NCBI RefSeq assembly: GCF_044324875.1
Contig: NZ_CP172185.1
Length of the DNA: 64,000 bases
Direction: 5' to 3' (one strand)
Source of the DNA: Escherichia coli
Lineage (GTDB): Bacteria; Pseudomonadota; Gammaproteobacteria; Enterobacterales; Enterobacteriaceae
The notes beneath the pieces were generated by a model. It was not told the DNA's origin and did not search any database. It worked only from the letters and a program-made list of their open reading frames with translations. The translations under genes were made by a program, and so were the position numbers. Below, in pieces: positions 1 to 32,288 of this stretch; positions within the stretch are counted from its first letter, which is position 1; each line of letters starts with the position of its first letter.

Positions 1-53
1 CATCATAACTCACCAAACAACCAGTCACCAGTTAAGATACATCAAAAAAAAAT

Positions 54-91
54 TACCCATGGGTATTTACTTTTTGGATACCCATGGGTAT
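54..91. repeat. Two copies of the perfect palindrome TACCCATGGGTA (54-65 and 79-90; second extends to ATACCCATGGGTAT 78-91), centres 25 bp apart, each followed by a T-run
   Basis: Read directly from sequence; dyad symmetry typical of a dimeric DNA-binding protein operator. Confidence 0.6.
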
Positions 92-283
92 ACTTTTTTT
101 CATACCAACCCACCCCGCCCCACAGAACGCAGGGCAATACTTCGAGTTACCAGGCAGTGGTCAGGGGTTAAGTAGCCAGCCCGAGGCGTATGAACATGAC
201 GGCAGGGTTTAACTTTAACTATGCAGCAGGTTTTTGTTCCGCTACCCCGGCGTTAAGGGGAAACAGCACTGAGAGAAATCAGT

Positions 284-502
284 ATGCAGAAGCGAGAACC
301 CGTCATCATCTCGCCAGACTATACCGATGATGAACTTTATGAGTGGATGCGCCGGAAAATTCAGGCTGCGCAGGACCTGAAGTGGGCCAATGAAGCCAGG
401 GCTAAGGAGGCTGAAAATCTGTCAGCTCTGGAGCAGGATATCACCAGGCTGGAAAAAGCAGCGGCATTAAGCATTGCCAGAATGATTACATACCCGCGTT
501 AA
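284..502 (+). CDS. Hypothetical small prophage protein (72 aa), predicted helical/coiled-coil
   Basis: ORF with GAGA-type RBS upstream, co-oriented with prophage early genes; no recognised family. Confidence 0.45.
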   Translation: MQKREPVIISPDYTDDELYEWMRRKIQAAQDLKWANEARAKEAENLSALEQDITRLEKAAALSIARMITYPR

Positions 503-946
503 CAGCTAATCAACAAGGCCAGGGTTGGTAATTAATGACTTCTCCACGGGTGAGGTGGAGTGCGTGCGCCGGACACAGACTGGTTAACGTCGCCTGGAGG
601 CACCAGGCACCGCATCAACAAAGTTCACTTCGGTGATGAAAGGTAAGAGAAAATGTTGAATGTAGCTATTGAAAACCAGTACGGGTGGAATTATAGTGCA
701 CCTGCACCTCATAAAGCGGGTGCCGGGATTGCTACCCCGACGTTCACTAACGCGCATAACCGCGCCCAGGCGGTTTTTTTATGCGTAATGCACAGCCACA
801 TTCAGATTATGGTGGGGCGTGCAGGGCAGCCGCAAGGCTGGCCGGGTTCGTTAGTGACCGGTTGTAGCAACCCTGTACGTCTCACCACCCATGAGATTGC
901 TACCTCCGGTGGTGAGTTAATCAAATTCACTAACGAGGCTGCCATC

Positions 947-1501
947 ATGGCTACTATCCCTACCCTTTCTCACCCTGACATAACCATCAAAAACGGTCGC
1001 GCTGTCACTACGTCTATTGCGATCGCAGAGTTCTTTGGCAAGCGCCATGAACGAGTGCTGGATAAAATTCGCAATCTGGACTGTTCAGCAAAATTCACTG
1101 AGCACAATTTTGTGTCGAGCAAATACACCGACTCAACCGGGCGCAAACTCCCTATGTACCAAATCACCAAAAACGGCTTCGTTTTCCTGGTGATGGGCTT
1201 CACGGGCAAAAAGGCCGCTGCATTCAAGGAAGCCTACATTGCCGAGTTCGACCGCATGGAGGAAGAACTGCGCCGGAATAACACCACACCCGCTGACAAA
1301 ATAATCCCGGGTGATGGCCGCACCCTGGTTATCCGCTTCGACGAACACGGCTACATCAAATTCACCGAAACCGTTCCTGATGGCGCACTGGTCTGTACTC
1401 TGGATACTTTCCGTTTTTATCTGGAAAAGCAGGGATGGACTCTCATAAACCGGGGCGCAATTAAAAATATGACCGTCGAGCAGTTGCTGAGTATTAAATA
1501 G
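947..1501 (+). CDS. Phage regulatory protein, Rha family (about 184 aa)
   Basis: Motif TTSIAIAEFFGKRHERVLDKIRNL typical of the Rha N-terminal domain; GAGG RBS before ATG 947; the track ORF 653-1501 is probably over-extended upstream. Confidence 0.7.
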   Translation: MATIPTLSHPDITIKNGRAVTTSIAIAEFFGKRHERVLDKIRNLDCSAKFTEHNFVSSKYTDSTGRKLPMYQITKNGFVFLVMGFTGKKAAAFKEAYIAEFDRMEEELRRNNTTPADKIIPGDGRTLVIRFDEHGYIKFTETVPDGALVCTLDTFRFYLEKQGWTLINRGAIKNMTVEQLLSIK

Positions 1502-1546
1502 TTTTCTGGAATTTCCTTCATATCACAAATTATTAAGGAGATTATT

Positions 1547-1768
1547 ATGATTGCTCATCACTTCGGAACCGATGAAATACCACGCCAGTGCGTCACTCCC
1601 GGCGATTACGTTATTTACGAAGGCCGGACATATATCGCCTCGGCAAACAATATCGAAAAGCAAAAACTTTATATCCGTGATTTCACTACAAAAACATGCA
1701 TTACTGACCGCATGATTAAAGTCTTCCTCGGTCGTGATGGTTTACCTGTAAAGGCGGTGGCATGGTGA
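1547..1768 (+). CDS. Hypothetical small prophage protein (73 aa)
   Basis: Strong RBS AAGGAG 8 nt before ATG; no recognised family. Confidence 0.5.
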
Positions 1769-3990
1769 GCTGTAATAAATAACTGACCCAATACGACATT
1801 CAGCTTAATAAATACATAAGGGTCGATTCTTATATGCCAGCAATGGCAGGGATTCGCACAACCTTAAAACAGCAATGAGGTTTATCAATGAGCACTGATA
1901 AAGAAACTTTTGCGCTATATTGCGAAGCTAAAAATGACAAAGTCAGAAAACGCCTTGGGATTAAAGGTGGTTTTTACTGGACTACAGCAAAAAAATTATC
2001 TGTTGCCATCTCCCGCTGCATTACCGCAATGGATGATAACGATTATGATGAAGACGACTTTAAAAAACCTGTTCGCGTCCATTTGCCCGTTGTTGATGAC
2101 CTTCCACCGGAAGGCGTGTTTGATACCGAATTCTGTAACCGGTATGAAAAAGGCGGCGAAGATGGCATCACAATGATATTTATCGCGCCTCCGCCATCCG
2201 CGCAGGACAAACCAGCCAGCACTGACAACACCAATGTTAATGGCGAAGACATGACTGAGATTGAGGAGAATATGCTTCTGCCGGTTTCAGGTCAGATTCT
2301 GCCTGTTCGCTGGCTGGCGCAACACGGCGGCGAAAAACCAGTAACGCACGTTTCGCGGGATGAACTGCGCTCATTACATAACGCACAGGAAGAAAAACTT
2401 CCCGCCGTTACCGCGCTGGCCATCTCAAATAAAGCAGCGCAACTCGAACCGCTGGAGATTCGGGATTTGTACAAACTGGTGCGGGACACTGACAAAGTTT
2501 TTCCCGCTCCCGTAAATTCAGACCTGGGACTGATGACCTCCTTCATCGAAGCATACCTGGACGCTGACTACACTGATCGTGGTCTGCTTACAAAAGAGTG
2601 GATGAAAGGAAATCGTGTTTCTCGCATCAGTCGCACACCATCCGGCGCTAACGCTGGCGGCGGTATTCTTACCGATCGCGGCGAAGGTTTTGTGCATGAT
2701 AATGCGTCAATGGCATTCGATGTTGCTACAGGAAAACTGGCTCGTTCGATGGATGTGGATATTTACAGCATGCATCCTTCACATACCAGACGTGTTAACG
2801 AAATTATCGCAGAAAATGATCCCTGTTTCTCCGTCTTCCTTAAGGCTTTTCTGAACATGCCAGGCGGGATGGATTATTCCCGCGCCATCGTGGTTGCCTC
2901 CGTGAAAGAAGCACCGGTTGGTATAGAGGCTATGCCCCACCGCGTCACCGAATACCTGAATAAAGTGCTGACCGAAACCGATCATGCCAACCCTGATCCG
3001 GAAATCGTGGATATTGCCTGCGGTCGTTCCTCTGCACCAATGCCGCAGCGTGTAACAGAAGAAGGAAAACAGGATGATGAAAAAAAACCGCAACCGTCTG
3101 GCGCAATGGCAGATGAACAGGCAACTACTAAAACAGTGGAACCGGATACAACTGAACATCATCCGGACACGCAGACGCTGGATGCTCGGCCGCAGGTGAA
3201 TTCTGTTGATGCGAAATATCAGAAACTGCGGGCAGAACTCCATGAAGCCCGGAAAAACATTCCGCCCCAAAATCCTGTCGACGAAGACAAATTGCTGGCA
3301 ACCTCTCGCGGAGAATTTGCTGAAGGGATTAGCGACCAGAATGATCCGAAATGGGTGAAGGGGATTGAAACCCGCGATTCTGTGAACCAGAATCAGCAAG
3401 AAACGGAACAGAACGACCAGAAAGCGGAACAAAACAGCCCAAATGTGCAACGAAAAGAGCCAAAAGCGAAACAATCCGAACCAGTAGCGCAACAGGAACC
3501 GGAAAAAGTCTGCACCGTCTGCGGTCAGAGCGGTGTCGACAACTGTCCTGATTGTGGCGTGGTGATGGGCGACGCAACATACCAGGAAATGTTCGATGAA
3601 GAGAATCAGCCTGAAGTTCAGGAAAATGATCCAGAGGAAATGGAAGGCTCTGCGCATCAGAACAAGGAGAACTCTGGCGGCAATCAGCATCATGCCAGCG
3701 ATAGTGAAACTGGCGAGACGGCAAATCCCTTAATTAAGATAACCAGTCATCACAAATATAAGTCCACAAGCAAAACGTGGTATCACCTGATGATCGACCT
3801 TGAAACAATGGGAACCAACACCAATGCACCCATAGTAGTTATTGGTGCGGTTTTCTTCGACCCGGAAACAGGGGAAATCGGGCCGGTATTTTATATCGTT
3901 ATCAGCCTGACTGACGCAATGAATACAGGGGCTGTTTGAACCGCCCCGGGAATCCTGGAGACTAAACTCCCTGAGAAAGAGGTAAACAGA

Positions 3991-4317
3991 ATGACTAAAA
4001 ATACTCGTTTTTCCCCCGAAGTCCGTCAGAGGGCGATTCGTATGGTTCTGGAAAGTCAGGGCGAATATGACTCACAGTGGGCGGCAATTTGTTCCATTGC
4101 CCCAAAGATTGGCTGTACACCGGAGACTCTGCGTGTCTGGGTACGCCAGCATGAGCGGGATACCGGAGGCGGTGATGGCGGGCTCACCACCGCTGAACGT
4201 CAGCGTCTGAAAGAGCTGGAACGTGAAAATCGTGAACTGCGCCGCAGTAACGATATCCTTCGCCAGGCTTCCGCTTATTTTGCGAAGGCGGAGTTCGACC
4301 GCCTCTGGAAAAAGTGA
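3991..4317 (+). CDS. IS629 transposase OrfA (108 aa)
   Basis: Recognised IS3-family OrfA sequence; stop overlaps orfB start in ATGA. Confidence 0.9.
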
Positions 4318-5204
4318 TGCCACTGCTGGATAAGCTGCGTAAGCTGTACGGGGTCGGACCGGTATGCAGTGAACTACATATTGCCCCGTCAACGTATTAC
4401 CACTGTCAGCAACAGCGACATCATCCGGATAAACGCAGTGCCCGTGCGCAGCGCGATGACTGGCTGAAGAAAGAGATACTGCGCGTATACGATGGGAATC
4501 ATCAGGTATACGGTGTGCGTAAAGTCTGGCGTCAGTTGTTACGGGAAGGAATCAGGGTAGCCAGATGTACAGTGGCGCGCCTCATGGCGGTTATGGGACT
4601 TGCCGGTGTTCTCCGGGGTAAAAAGGTCCGCACTACCGTCAGCCGGAAAGCCGTTGCCGCAGGCGACCGCGTAAACCGTCAGTTTGTGGCAGAACGTCCT
4701 GACCAGTTGTGGGTGGCTGATTTTACTTACGTCAGCACATGGCAGGGGGTCGTCTATGTGGCGTTCATCATTGATGTGTTTGCCGGATACATCGTGGGGT
4801 GGCGGGTCTCATCGTCTATGGAAACGACATTCGTGCTGGATGCTCTGGAGCAGGCGTTATGGGCCCGTCGACCGTCCGGCACAGTCCATCACAGTGATAA
4901 AGGTTCTCAGTATGTATCGCTGGCCTACACACAGCGGCTTAAGGAAGCCGGATTACTGGCATCAACAGGAAGTACTGGTGACTCGTATGACAACGCGATG
5001 GCGGAGAGCATCAATGGCCTTTACAAAGCGGAGGTAATACACCGTAAGAGCTGGAAAAACCGGACAGAAGTGGAGCTGGCCACACTCACGTGGGTGGACT
5101 GGTATAACAATCGACGATTGCTGGAAAGGCTGGGCCATATCCCACCGGCAGAAGCAGAAAAAGCTTATTATGCTTCCATCGGAAACGATGATCTGGCAGC
5201 CTGA
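4314..5204 (+). CDS. IS629 transposase OrfB (296 aa, DDE integrase-like catalytic domain)
   Basis: IS3-family OrfB; overlaps orfA by 4 nt. Confidence 0.9.
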
Positions 5205-5706
5205 GTTCACAGATAAAACACTCTCCAGGAAACCCGGGGCGGTTCAGTTCCTGATGGTGGCACCATCGAATGGTGGCTGAAGCAGTCCAGCGAAGCCAGA
5301 GCTGCCATTTTAACTGACCAGGTAAAAATGAAAGATGCCCTTTTGCGTTTTCGGGAATTCGTCAATGAACACTCCGATGAAAAATTCGTTCAGGTGTGGG
5401 GTAATGGCGCAACGTTCGATAACGCAATTTTGCGCACCTCATACGAACGTCTGGACATCCCCTGTCCGTGGCATTACAGCAACGATCGTGATGTACGCAC
5501 AATCGTTGAGATGGGGAAAATCACAGACTTCAATGCCAGAAGCGTAATTCCATTCGAAGGCGTGCGCCATAATGCTCTGGATGACGCTCTTCACCAGGCA
5601 AAATACGTAACAGCCGCTATACAAAAACTGATCCCGAATCAGGCTGATTTTTAATGTTCAACAGTCGCCAGTTGTCGTTGCTATTCTGCAACTGGCGCGT
5701 TCCGGA

Positions 5707-5985
5707 GTGATAGCCATGAGCGAACAGTACCTGATAACGCTCGATGAGTGGAAACCAAAACGGTTCAGTCTCCCAATAACAAACACTACCCTGGTGAAAT
5801 ATGGAAAACTAGGATACATCGTTCCAAGACCACAAAAAATTCGTGGGCGTTGGCTGATAGATCGCCGGGCAGTATTTGTTGGGCCAGGTGAAACAGGAAT
5901 TGCGCCGGAAATTCATACTGGCGATGATGATGCACTGAAGGAGATTTTAACTCATGTCACCGAGGCCACGAAAAAACAGCACTGA
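5707..5985 (+). CDS. xis: Prophage excisionase-like protein (92 aa)
   Basis: Small basic ORF directly upstream of and overlapping the integrase start by 32 nt. Confidence 0.6.
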   Translation: MIAMSEQYLITLDEWKPKRFSLPITNTTLVKYGKLGYIVPRPQKIRGRWLIDRRAVFVGPGETGIAPEIHTGDDDALKEILTHVTEATKKQH

Positions 5986-7072
5986 CGTAGCCGGTCTTTA
6001 CGAAAAGTTTGATCGCAGAACTGGCAGGGTTTACTACCAGTATAAAAACCCTGTGACTGGAAAATTTCACGGTCTCGGAACAGACAAATGTAAGGCAGAA
6101 AAAATCGCTTCCACAGCCAATCAGCGAATAGCTGCAGCAGAAGCTGAATATTACATGCGCAAAATTGATGAAAGTCCGTCAGCAACAAAACGTCGGGGTA
6201 TCAGATTAAAGGCATGGGTTGAACGATATCTGAAAATACAGGACACACGACTAAAAAATGGAGATATTGCAGCTACAACCCACAAAGAAAAAGCCCGAAT
6301 GGCTGCATACCTGGTTTCCCGTCTGGGAAACCACCCATTGAAAGAACTGGAAGTAAGAGACTTTGCATTGATACTGGATGAGTGGCTGGATAAAGACATG
6401 GTCAGCACGGCGAGAGTAAACCGTGGATTATGGGTTGATATTTATAAAGAAGCACAGCATGCAGGGGAAGTTCCTCCCGGATGGAATCCTCCGGAGGCTA
6501 CCCGTAAACCGATCCCTAAAGTAAGCAGAGCCAGACTCACCCTGGAAGACTGGCAAAAAATTTACAATGCAACGCCTGAAAGGCACTTTATTCGTAACGC
6601 AATGCTTCTTGCAATTGTTACTGGTCAGCGCCGTGATGACATTTGCCACATGCGTTTTTCAGATGTGTGGAACGAACACTTGCATATCACCCAGGGAAAA
6701 ACCGGAATGCGTCTGGCGTTACCGCTTACACTCCGCTGTGATGCCATTGGGATAACGTTAAAAGAAGTTATTGATGGATGCCGAGACAGAATATTAAGTC
6801 CATACCTAATCCATAGTCGGCACCAGAAACAACCAAAACCGATGAGTAAAGACAACCTGAGCGACTACTTTGCCAAAGCACGGGATCTGGCTGGGATAAT
6901 TCCACCAGCAGGAAAAACTCCTCCCACATTTCATGAACAACGCTCTCTATCAGAACGGCTGTACCGTACGCAGGGTATCGATACAAAAACATTACTGGGA
7001 CATAAAATCCAGGCAACCACCGATCGCTATAACGATACCCGAGGTCAGGAATGGGTTAAGTTGGTTATTTGA
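5954..7072 (+). CDS. int: Prophage tyrosine integrase (372 aa)
   Basis: C-terminal catalytic signature HxxR (HEQR) and terminal Tyr (DRYNDTR); N-terminal arm-binding-like region; lies at the prophage/host junction. Confidence 0.9.
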   Translation: MSPRPRKNSTDVAGLYEKFDRRTGRVYYQYKNPVTGKFHGLGTDKCKAEKIASTANQRIAAAEAEYYMRKIDESPSATKRRGIRLKAWVERYLKIQDTRLKNGDIAATTHKEKARMAAYLVSRLGNHPLKELEVRDFALILDEWLDKDMVSTARVNRGLWVDIYKEAQHAGEVPPGWNPPEATRKPIPKVSRARLTLEDWQKIYNATPERHFIRNAMLLAIVTGQRRDDICHMRFSDVWNEHLHITQGKTGMRLALPLTLRCDAIGITLKEVIDGCRDRILSPYLIHSRHQKQPKPMSKDNLSDYFAKARDLAGIIPPAGKTPPTFHEQRSLSERLYRTQGIDTKTLLGHKIQATTDRYNDTRGQEWVKLVI

Positions 7073-9595: not shown

Positions 9596-10294
9596 AAAAA
9601 ATCATAATACTGCTCAGTTTACTGATACTGCTGCCTCTGACAGCAACCAGTAAGCCCTTAATCCCAATAATGAAGACACTTTTTACGGATGTTACAGGTA
9701 CTGTACCGGATGCTGAGGAGATTGCGCGGAAAGCGGAGCTTTTTCGTCAACAAACCGGGATTGCGCCGTTTATCGTGGTTGTACCTGACGTTAATGAAGC
9801 AAGCTTCAGGCAAAATGGCAAAGCGATGCTGGCGCATGCGTCATCTTCATTGAGTGATGTAAAAGGCAGCGTCCTGTTACTTTTTACCACCCGCGAGCCA
9901 CGGTTAATTATGATAACCAACGGCCAGGTTGAAAGCGGTCTGGACGATAAACATCTCGGCCTTCTGGTTGAAAATCACACTCATGCTTATTTACATGCGG
10001 ACCTCTGGTATCAGGGAATCAATAATGCATTGGCTGTTTTACAAGCACAGATATTAAAACAACCGACGCCGCCACTGACATATTATCCGCATCCCGGACA
10101 ACAGCAGGAGAATGATCCTCCCGGCAGTACCACGATATTAGGTCTTTTTGCCTGGGCAGTTGCATTCATCTTCTTTACTGCATTTTTTTACTACACGACG
10201 CGCCTTAATTATGCATTAAAGTTTGCAGTGGCGATGACTATTGCCAATATGGGTTATCAGGCTTTATGTTTGTACATCGGGTAATGACTCCAAC

Positions 10295-10798
10295 TTATTG
10301 ATAGTGTTTTATGTTCAGATAATGCCCGATGACTTTGTCATGCAGCTCCACCGATTTTGAGAACGACAGCGACTTCCGTCCCAGCCGTGCCAGGTGCTGC
10401 CTCAGATTCAGGTTATGCCGCTCAATTCGCTGCGTATATCGCTTGCTGATTACGTGCAGCTTTCCCTTCAGGCGGGATTCATACAGTGGCCAGCCATCCG
10501 TCATCCATATCACCACGTCAAAGGGTGACAGCAGGCTCATAAGACGCCCCAGCGTCGCCATAGTGCGTTCACCGAATACGTGCGCAACAACCGTCTTCCG
10601 GAGCCTGTCATACGCGTAAAACAGCCAGCGCTGGCGCGATTTAGCCCCGACATAGCCCCACTGTTCGTCCATTTCCGCGCAGACGATGACGTCACTGCCC
10701 GGCTGTATGCGCGAGGTTACCGACTGCGGCCTGAGTTTTTTAAGTGACGTAAAATCGTGTTGAGGCCAACGCCCATAATGCGGGCAGTTGCCCGGCAT
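10295..10798 (-). CDS. insB: IS1 InsB reading frame (expressed as InsAB' by frameshift)
   Basis: 167-aa ORF recognised as IS1 InsB. Confidence 0.9.
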
Positions 10799-10992
10799 CC
10801 AACGCCATTCATGGCCATATCAATGATTTTCTGGTGCGTACCGGGTTGAGAAGCGGTGTAAGTGAACTGCAGTTGCCATGTTTTACGGCAGTGAGAGCAG
10901 AGATAGCGCTGATGTCCGGCGGTGCTTTTGCCGTTACGCACCACCCCGTCAGTAGCTGAACAGGAGGGACAGCTGATAGAAACAGAAGCCAC
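10717..10992 (-). CDS. insA: IS1 InsA
   Basis: 91-aa ORF recognised as IS1 InsA. Confidence 0.95.
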
Positions 10993-11159
10993 TGGAGCAC
11001 CTCAAAAACACCATCATACACTAAATCAGTAAGTTGGCAGCATCACCTGTACATCGATAATAGCTTTGCGATTACCAGAATATCGCCGCTCTGGGCAGGG
11101 CTGATTGGTGTCTGTACGTTTATTGCCGCGTTGTTATTGACGAGTAAACGGTAAAAGAG

Positions 11160-30098: not shown

Positions 30099-32288
30099 AT
30101 GCTTTCAACACAATTTAACAGGGATAATCAACATCAAACCACCTCCAAACCGTCACTGCTTGCCGCCTGCATAGCACTGGCACTCTTACCTTCCGCCGCT
30201 TTTGCTGCACCAGCCACTGAAGAAACGGTGATTGTTGAGGGTTCAGCCACTACTCCAGTTGATGACGAAAATGATTACAGCGTAACGTCTACCTCTGCGG
30301 GTACCAAAATGCAGATGACTCAACGTGATATTCCTCAGTCGGTCACTATTGTTAGCCAGCAGCGGATGGAAGATCAGCAGTTACAAACTCTGGGCGAAGT
30401 GATGGAAAACACGCTGGGGATCAGCAAAAGTCAGGCGGATTCCGATCGTGCTCTTTATTATTCCCGCGGATTCCAGATCGATAACTATATGGTTGATGGT
30501 ATCCCCACCTATTTTGAATCGCGCTGGAATCTGGGCGACGCACTTTCTGATATGGCACTGTTTGAACGCGTAGAAGTTGTGCGTGGCGCGACAGGCCTCA
30601 TGACCGGGACGGGTAATCCATCTGCGGCAATTAATATGGTTCGAAAACACGCGACCAGTCGTGAATTTAAAGGCGATGTCTCGGCGGAATACGGTAGCTG
30701 GAACAAAGAACGGTATGTGGCGGATTTACAAAGCCCACTCACCGAAGATGGTAAAATCCGCGCACGAATTGTCGGCGGCTACCAGAATAACGACTCATGG
30801 CTGGACCGCTACAACAGTGAAAAGACCTTCTTCTCCGGCATTGTCGATGCTGATTTAGGCGATCTTACGATGCTTTCAGCCGGTTACGAATATCAGCGTA
30901 TTGATGTTAATAGCCCAACCTGGGGCGGTTTACCGCGCTGGAATACTGATGGCAGCAGCAACAGTTACGATCGCGCACGCAGTACCGCACCTGACTGGGC
31001 GTACAACGATAAAGAGATCAACAAGGTCTTTATGACCCTGAAGCAGCGGTTTGCTGATACCTAGCAAGCGACACTGAATGCCACCCACTCCGAAGTCGAA
31101 TTTGACAGCAAAATGATGTATGTCGATGCCTATGTAAGTAAAGCGGATGGTATGCTGGTTGGGCCATACAGTAATTATGGACCTGGCTTTGATTATGTCG
31201 GCGGCACCGGTTGGAACAGCGGCAAACGTAAAGTTGATGCGCTGGATTTGTTCGCTGACGGTAGTTATGAATTGTTTGGTCGTCAGCACAATCTAATGTT
31301 TGGTGGCAGTTACAGCAAACAAAACAATCGTTACTTCAGTTCATGGGCCAACATCTTCCCGGATGAAATTGGCAGTTTCTACAACTTTAATGGCAATTTC
31401 CCACAAACCGACTGGTCACCACAGAGTCTGGCGCAGGACGATACCACACATATGAAATCGTTATATGCTGCCACTCGAGTCACCCTTGCCGATCCGCTGC
31501 ATCTGATCCTCGGCGCACGTTATACCAACTGGCGGGTTGATACGCTGACTTACAGCATGGAGAAAAACCACACCACGCCTTATGCTGGTTTGGTATTTGA
31601 CATCAATGACAACTGGTCGACCTACGCCAGCTATACCTCTATTTTCCAGCCGCAAAATGATCGTGACAGTTCAGGCAAATATCTGGCTCCAATCACCGGT
31701 AACAACTACGAGCTGGGTCTGAAATCGGACTGGATGAATAGCCGTCTGACCACCACGTTAGCCATCTTCCGTATTGAGCAGGATAATGTCGCTCAGTCCA
31801 CCGGTACACCTATCCCCGGCAGCAACGGCGAAACCGCCTATAAAGCGGTGGATGGGACAGTCAGTAAAGGTGTGGAATTTGAACTCAACGGCGCAATTAC
31901 CGACAACTGGCAGCTGACGTTTGGCGCAACGCGCTATATTGCAGAAGATAACGAAGGAAACGCCGTTAATCCTAATCTGCCACGCACCACGGTTAAAATG
32001 TTCACCAGCTATCGGTTGCCTGTCATGCCAGAGTTGACGGTCGGCGGTGGTGTTAACTGGCAAAATCGCGTGTATACCGACACCGTGACACCGTATGGCA
32101 CCTTCCGCGCCGAGCAAGGTAGCTACGCGCTGGTGGATCTCTTCACCCGCTACCAGGTGACGAAAAACTTCTCGTTACAGGGGAACGTCAATAACCTGTT
32201 CGACAAAACCTACGATACCAACGTGGAAGGTTCTATCGTCTACGGCGCACCGCGTAATTTCAGCATTACCGGCACGTATCAATTCTGA
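30099..32288 (+). pseudogene. fhuE: TonB-dependent ferric coprogen/rhodotorulic acid receptor FhuE with an in-frame TAG stop at 31062-31064
   Basis: Track ORFs 30099-31064 and 31113-32288 share one frame across 730 codons; C-terminal Phe typical of an outer-membrane barrel. Confidence 0.85.

Follow-up and report, generated by a model that had tools for sequence, protein, structure and literature searches.

The window, by which we mean the whole 64-kb stretch of DNA analysed here, carries fhuE as a nonsense pseudogene, an ordinary kind of lesion in a known gene. It is probably a recent pseudogene, produced by a single G>A change at 31063 at a Dcm-site deamination hotspot that has been hit recurrently across E. 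coli. The features on which this reading depends are collected in Table 1.

Table 1. Features of the fhuE locus in the window, with the basis of each assignment
Feature	Position	Strand	Basis or remark
fhuE pseudogene, ferric-coprogen/ferric-rhodotorulic acid TonB-dependent receptor	30099..32288	+	729 codons + stop, one interruption
N-terminal ORF, 321 aa: signal sequence, plug, initial part of the barrel	30099..31064	+	ORF list, Pfam
Amber TAG (codon 322) in place of Trp322 (TGG); context gct gat acc TAG caa gcg	31062..31064	+	comparison with intact alleles
C-terminal remnant ORF, 391 aa, barrel only, without signal sequence	31113..32288	+	ORF list; internal ATG = codon 339
Dcm site lost by the mutation (CCTGG in intact alleles, CCTAG in the window)	31060..31064		comparison with intact alleles
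Second CCTGG, overlapping Trp codon W275; intact here, amber elsewhere	30919..30923		amber in 11 complete genomes
CCAGG overlapping Gln686 (CAG), amber-capable; intact here	32153..32157		amber in 0/5426 genomes

Translation of the region 30099-32288 gave 730 codons in one frame, in which codon 322 is the only internal stop apart from the terminal one, in agreement with the earlier note, which had described a single continuous frame broken only by TAG. The annotated fhuE of 5422 out of 5426 complete E. coli genomes aligns to this region without a gap, the identity of the window gene to annotated fhuE being 99.5-99.6 %, and the lesion is thus an in-frame stop rather than a frameshift. The change from TGG to TAG, also proposed in that note, is confirmed by the nearest intact alleles, those of MEW (9 nt apart), ST2747 (11 nt) and MS 69-1 (11 nt), all three of which have TGG at codon 322; the mutation is therefore W322* through G>A at 31063, corresponding to G965A in the gene.

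The window allele lies 39 nt from that of K-12, whose FhuE is identical across residues 37-729 to the protein in PDB 6E4V ('FhuE receptor'), and at the level of sequence the window gene is clearly an orthologue of the FhuE characterised in E. coli. The architecture is that of a plug followed by a TonB-dependent β-barrel: Pfam places Plug (PF07715) at residues 75-175 and the barrel (PF00593) at residues 256-700 of the K-12 protein, and in the window the 321-aa ORF matches Plug while the 391-aa ORF matches TonB_dep_Rec_b-barrel. The conserved gene order hinT-fhuE-ptsG is likewise retained. A complete transporter, however, would need an intact frame, which the amber at codon 322 interrupts, and the stop stands against a sense codon in orthologues that align without gaps. 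On account of this amber codon the gene is classed as a fhuE pseudogene and not as a functional member of the family. The 391-aa C-terminal remnant, which in other assemblies appears as a separate call matching PF00593, is presumed to be non-functional.

The surroundings of the gene are unremarkable. The window is a collinear segment of the E. coli chromosome that begins with the end of a prophage and continues in the order potCD ... mfd ... ndh ... hinT-fhuE-ptsG ... fab cluster ... rne ... flg cluster ... murJ. On comparison with strain MS 69-1, fhuE was the only one of the ~55 chromosomal genes of the window to contain an internal stop, and ycfZ, interrupted by IS1, is the one further gene with damage; the window is neither a decaying Shigella-like region nor a low-quality assembly. 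Since fhuE and ptsG are convergent, no gene downstream should suffer a polar effect. The best matches among complete genomes over 24 kb (MS 69-1, GN02461 and TUM1226) reach 99.3 % identity, and the lineage of the window, missing from the set of 5426 complete genomes, is present among the NCBI and Logan contigs.

The mutated base lies within a motif of known mutability. In the ancestral context, aCCTGGc, G31063 occupies the fourth position of CCTGG, so that both the site (CCWGG) and the change (G>A at the fourth position) are those of a Dcm hotspot. Neither this context nor the recurrence of the mutation across the species had been part of the earlier reading of this DNA. To our knowledge dcm is near-universal in E. 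coli; within the 64-kb window neither dcm nor vsr is encoded, and an active Dcm in the window lineage is assumed here. In one study, each of the three natural isolates examined carried dcm (PMC9911048). Dcm methylates CCWGG, at the second C on each strand, and deamination gives rise to T:G mismatches that are processed by Vsr (PMC2715241). In natural populations the rate of C:G>T:A at the second C of Dcm sites is raised ~8-fold, according to the figure from Cherry 2018 as it is cited in PMC12344412.

Considering this background, the ancestral CCTGG at 31060-31064 would have been methylated by Dcm, with the methylated second C of the complementary CCAGG paired with G31063. Deamination of this 5-methylcytosine would have left a T:G mismatch opposite G31063, and wherever Vsr (very-short-patch repair) did not restore the pair, replication would have fixed CCTAG. 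From the sequence context we infer such a deamination to be the cause of G31063>A. A position of this kind may be expected to mutate faster than ordinary G:C pairs and could in this way have placed the same amber on at least five fhuE haplotypes, while CCTAG, being no longer a Dcm site, would offer no matching fast route of reversion.

The gene itself allows a comparison of codons inside and outside such motifs. The K-12 fhuE contains five CCWGG sites, of which three are amber-capable, namely W275 and W322 (both CCTGG) and Q686 (CCAGG), and its other 13 Trp codons lie outside Dcm sites. When synthetic amber versions of these codons were searched for as exact words among the 5426 complete genomes, with queries of 32-37 nt designed so that every 28-nt seed covers the mutated base, 6 genomes proved to carry W322* and 11 to carry W275*; Q686* was found in none of them, and amongst the two non-Dcm controls W234* was found in one genome and W300* in none. 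The W275* alleles fall into four or more haplotype groups; that of STEC2018-607 is the C2 allele with a single change, and C2 is also parental to the W322* allele of S19-651. Counted as events, the two Dcm Trp codons account for 7-9 against 1 at the two controls (one-sided binomial p 0.01-0.035, Q686 left aside), an excess which becomes weak when Q686 is counted in (p 0.05-0.11, likewise one-sided). With two control codons, the statistical support for an excess at Dcm sites is moderate at best.

Truncated products in the public protein collection were counted as well. In the rare protein background of the window itself, W322* is the sole one present out of seven Trp truncations, and in the background of strain 165 the counts are 5 contigs for W234*, 21 for W275* and 100 for W322*. 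Against the K-12 background each of the ten Trp truncations occurs, with 967 contigs for W275* (one source of which names Shigella flexneri), 117 for W234*, 107 for W322* and 17-57 for the others, the control W234* here exceeding W322*. Clonal sampling dominates the K-12 counts, which may also include proteins cut at contig ends, and these counts lend weak support; the rarer backgrounds of the window and strain 165 are cleaner for this purpose, and the collection as a whole supports the hotspot in part.

Selection for the loss of FhuE, for instance as escape from an agent that gains entry via FhuE or because an unused receptor is costly, could by itself drive the recurrence in the absence of any hotspot. 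Other inactivations of the gene speak for such a role: strain 042 carries Q5* (TAA), insertions of IS1, IS1414 and ISKpn26 are found in fhuE of other strains, W234* occurs as described above, and Salmonella Typhi and Paratyphi A have acquired fhuE pseudogenes independently (PMC2658671). Loss of FhuE is evidently tolerated, and it may at times be advantageous. However, selection acting in this manner should scatter the hits over many disabling sites, whereas 17 genomes carry them at the CCTGG Trp codons and 1 at the controls; moreover, no FhuE-dependent phage or toxin of E. coli came to light in a literature search. As the sole explanation, selection therefore appears unlikely. It is compatible with the hotspot as a second factor, accounting for the persistence of the alleles but not for the choice of the base, and relaxed or positive selection for loss also contributes to the observed pattern. 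A bolder proposal, for which we would hold out little expectation, is that the two CCTGG Trp codons serve as high-rate 'off' switches exploited by selection in some niches, the persistence of the amber on three continents being due to positive selection and not to drift. Were this true, the loss would amount, for instance, to an escape from a phage, bacteriocin or siderophore-borne toxin entering via FhuE, with the hotspot choosing the mutation.

The reading of a recurrent Dcm-site mutation also depends on the carriers of W322* being of separate origin. They were sought by an exact-word search with a 37-nt query that has the TAG at its centre, in which every 28-nt seed spans the mutated base; a longer query of 61 nt was given up in favour of queries of 32-37 nt because non-carriers also matched it, at 98.4 %, which made its matches ambiguous. 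The six complete genomes with the identical TAG are S19-651, CUVET21-37, FDN-11, WWCOL-315, SW070917 and GPEC1240, and in every one of them RefSeq labels fhuE as a pseudogene ('internal stop'). At fhuE they differ from the window allele by 38-42 nt. The sequencing run ERR8703441 encodes the same 321-aa product with an allele 24 nt from that of the window, and altogether the other carriers fall on four further fhuE haplotypes at distances of 24-42 nt from the window haplotype. Each of the four corresponding amber alleles equals an intact allele across all 2190 nt with the exception of G965A, the pairs of amber and intact alleles being CUVET21-37 and strain 165, ERR8703441 and DETEC-S792, S19-651 and C2, and SW070917 and K-12 MG1655. 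The simplest reading of these sequences is that W322* has arisen independently at least five times, the window lineage included.

Alternatively, one ancestral amber allele may have been dispersed between lineages by homologous recombination. E. coli does recombine, and the identity between the window and MS 69-1 is itself a mosaic that varies from 97.4 % to 100 % by gene. Such a history is nevertheless hard to reconcile with four amber alleles that each match an intact allele over 2190 nt bar one base. In addition, carriers are not alike at the neighbouring polymorphisms (-15, +10 and +28 nt relative to the mutated base), and recombinational spread would therefore need the transfer of several tracts shorter than ~40 nt. 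The second Trp codon embedded in a Dcm site, W275, behaves alike. On the strength of the single-base matches to intact alleles and the nearby SNPs among carriers, spread by recombination was rejected as very improbable.

The possibility raised in the earlier note that the TAG is a sequencing error does not hold. The exact 321-aa product is present on 11-12 contigs from independent runs (NCBI and Logan; public protein collection). The contigs of SRR8502383, SRR8502404 and SRR21142071 show 99.97-100 % identity to the window over 3-7 kb; that of SRR21142071 is 100 % identical to it across 5 kb, and those of SRR8502383 and SRR8502404 each differ from it by 1 nt and must therefore come from isolates other than that of the window. 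The amber allele is fixed in a repeatedly sampled lineage.

A specific form of error deserves attention, since the change falls exactly on a Dcm motif and Dcm motifs disturb the nanopore signal (PMC9911048): the TAG may be a sequencing or assembly fault, possibly a nanopore basecalling artefact, in a gene that is in fact intact. However, in nine carrier sequences the 16 CCWGG sites present in 7 kb around fhuE showed a hotspot-type change only at the codon-322 site, the other 15 being free of it. Four carrier genomes of the CUVET type, two from the USA and one each from Thailand and South Korea, share one sequence across the 7 kb, which fits inheritance within one lineage and not an error linked to the motif. 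The W322* proteins of the K-12 background, moreover, stem from several sources, under NCBI as well as ENA accessions. With one altered site out of 16 in the carriers, a nanopore artefact at the Dcm motif was rejected, and together with the independent contigs this makes an error of any kind exceedingly improbable.

With the amber accepted as real, its consequence for the protein can be considered. FhuE imports the fungal siderophores coprogen and rhodotorulic acid, and ferrioxamine B weakly; the residues of its binding pocket are R117, S141, R142, W143, W275, N303, S337, Y341, D343, N373 and W416 (PMC6503915). Translation of the window gene would end after residue 321 and leave the plug and part of the barrel, as the earlier note had predicted and as the Pfam boundaries and ORF matches bear out; the product would also retain the signal sequence. 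Past the stop, in residues 322-729, lie 5 of the 11 coprogen-binding residues (S337, Y341, D343, N373 and W416) and most of the barrel, and a product of 321 residues that lacks them would therefore be no transporter. Uptake of coprogen and rhodotorulic acid is thus predicted to be lost.

In E. coli UAG followed by C is a relatively weak termination context. Such a C follows this stop and the remaining frame is fully open, but that a suppressor tRNA or leaky termination yields useful amounts of full-length FhuE here is hardly credible, as no tRNA gene is found within the 64-kb window, the relatives carry the sense codon TGG so that the stop is not conserved as a programmed or suppressed stop would be, an open downstream frame is expected in any recent pseudogene, and RefSeq calls the identical alleles pseudogenes. 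A low level of readthrough, or suppression by a tRNA encoded elsewhere in the genome, may occur but finds no backing in the relatives.

Some practical points may be made. For annotation, fhuE in this genome is best called a pseudogene (W322*), and should be regarded neither as two genes nor as an error to be 'corrected'. The gene offers a natural example of Dcm methylation shaping loss-of-function alleles, in which one base of a 2.2-kb gene has mutated independently at least five times. Shared ancestry or selection should, in phylogenetics and GWAS, be inferred from identical nonsense alleles at CCWGG sites only once the hotspot has been allowed for. Identical W322* alleles were already known as RefSeq pseudogenes; what is added here is the Dcm-site mechanism together with the recurrence, and the sister site at W275. 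It adds one more case to a well-known class of mutation and leaves the current understanding of FhuE and Dcm unchanged.

Amongst known systems, Salmonella Typhi and Paratyphi A resemble the present case in the independent loss of the same receptor (PMC2658671), although the species and the lesions differ; the host-restriction argument is a feature of those pathogens and is not extended to the window lineage. The excess in fhuE (~7-9 against 1) is of an order similar to the ~8-fold effect in Dcm statistics from genome collections, as far as Cherry 2018 is represented in PMC12344412, but these statistics, as described there, are genome-wide whereas fhuE is a case of a single gene and site. Comparable, too, are the six 'internal stop' pseudogenes of fhuE in RefSeq, which have the identical W322* TAG yet stand on haplotypes 38-42 nt away and are of independent origin, and the W275* allele, in which the receptor is likewise lost by TGG>TAG inside CCTGG but at a different codon. 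A parallel in mechanism is lacI, in which the amber hotspots are CAG>TAG changes within CCAGG that result from deamination of 5-methylcytosine; they were reportedly located at Dcm sites in laboratory selections by Coulondre, Miller, Farabaugh and Gilbert in 1978 and by Lieb in 1991 (the latter being ref. 9 of PMC2715241). As in those hotspots, C:G>T:A at the methylated second C of CCWGG would create TAG above the rate of other sites, with Vsr counteracting it. In fhuE, by contrast, the opposite strand is hit (TGG>TAG in CCTGG), the target is a chromosomal receptor gene, and the hotspot appears as homoplasy among natural isolates.

Truncation of FhuE, the ferric-coprogen receptor, recurs at a tryptophan other than W322. 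Codon 275 encodes a coprogen-binding residue, and an amber TAG at this position (W275*) was found in 11 complete E. coli genomes that fall into at least four haplotype groups; the codon was checked in three NCBI assemblies and TAG was present in each. The W275* truncation was also detected on at least 967 contigs, one source calling the protein Shigella flexneri, and VG888-46E9 carries a further amber, W234*. In E. coli 042, codon 5 of fhuE reads TAA in place of CAA and the RefSeq annotation gives the gene as missing its N-terminus, while four further complete genomes have an insertion sequence within fhuE, namely IS1 in 2017.18.04CC, IS1414 in HSP425 and OZ547038, and ISKpn26 in S1-CAM-01-A. 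The codon 5 change in 042 and these insertions are lesions independent of W322*.

Codon 686 is open to the chemistry proposed for W322*, that is, deamination of 5-methylcytosine at a Dcm site (CCWGG), and none of the 5426 complete genomes searched carries an amber allele there. The absence of such an allele may reflect an effect of the strand, the efficiency of repair, or a nearly full-length barrel being toxic.

The 1341-nt Logan contig SRR12298517 should not be counted as a W322* carrier. It ends at position 31061, one base short of the TAG, and matches the truncated 321-aa product only because it stops there, the stop codon lying beyond its end. The break itself may have arisen from a mixture of G and A at the site in the sample.

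Features of the window, with positions on the strand as given
Feature	Position	Remarks
Lambdoid prophage end	1-7072	directly upstream of potC (7239)
Prophage integrase gene	5954-7072	
Target duplications	10271-10279 and 11048-11056	9-bp direct, TGTACATCG; flank IS1 in ycfZ
IS1 element, 768 bp	10280-11047	near ycfZ 3' end; transposase on minus strand
fhuE codon 275	30919-30923	Trp within CCTGG; intact
fhuE codon 686	32153-32157	Gln within CCAGG; amber-capable

Over 24 kb, none of the complete genomes exceeds 99.3% identity to the window. Against the closest of them, MS 69-1, identity varies from gene to gene in a mosaic manner, being 100% for ldtC, bhsA, ycfL, hinT, acpP and rpmF and 97.4-97.9% for potCD, mfd, flgI and flgE, a sequence pattern that suggests blocks of recombination. 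On comparison of the two strains, ycfZ is interrupted by IS1 past codon 229 of 261 in the window and is whole in MS 69-1.

The prophage end contains genes for a Rha-like protein, an exonuclease, an excisionase and the integrase, and potB is absent from the potC side of the prophage in the window. The same site is occupied by a prophage in MS 69-1 as well. The integrase and excisionase genes of the two are 97-98% identical, and the inner genes show an identity of only 83-87% or are absent; judged by these identities, the two look like different phages, or a mosaic, sharing one attachment site.
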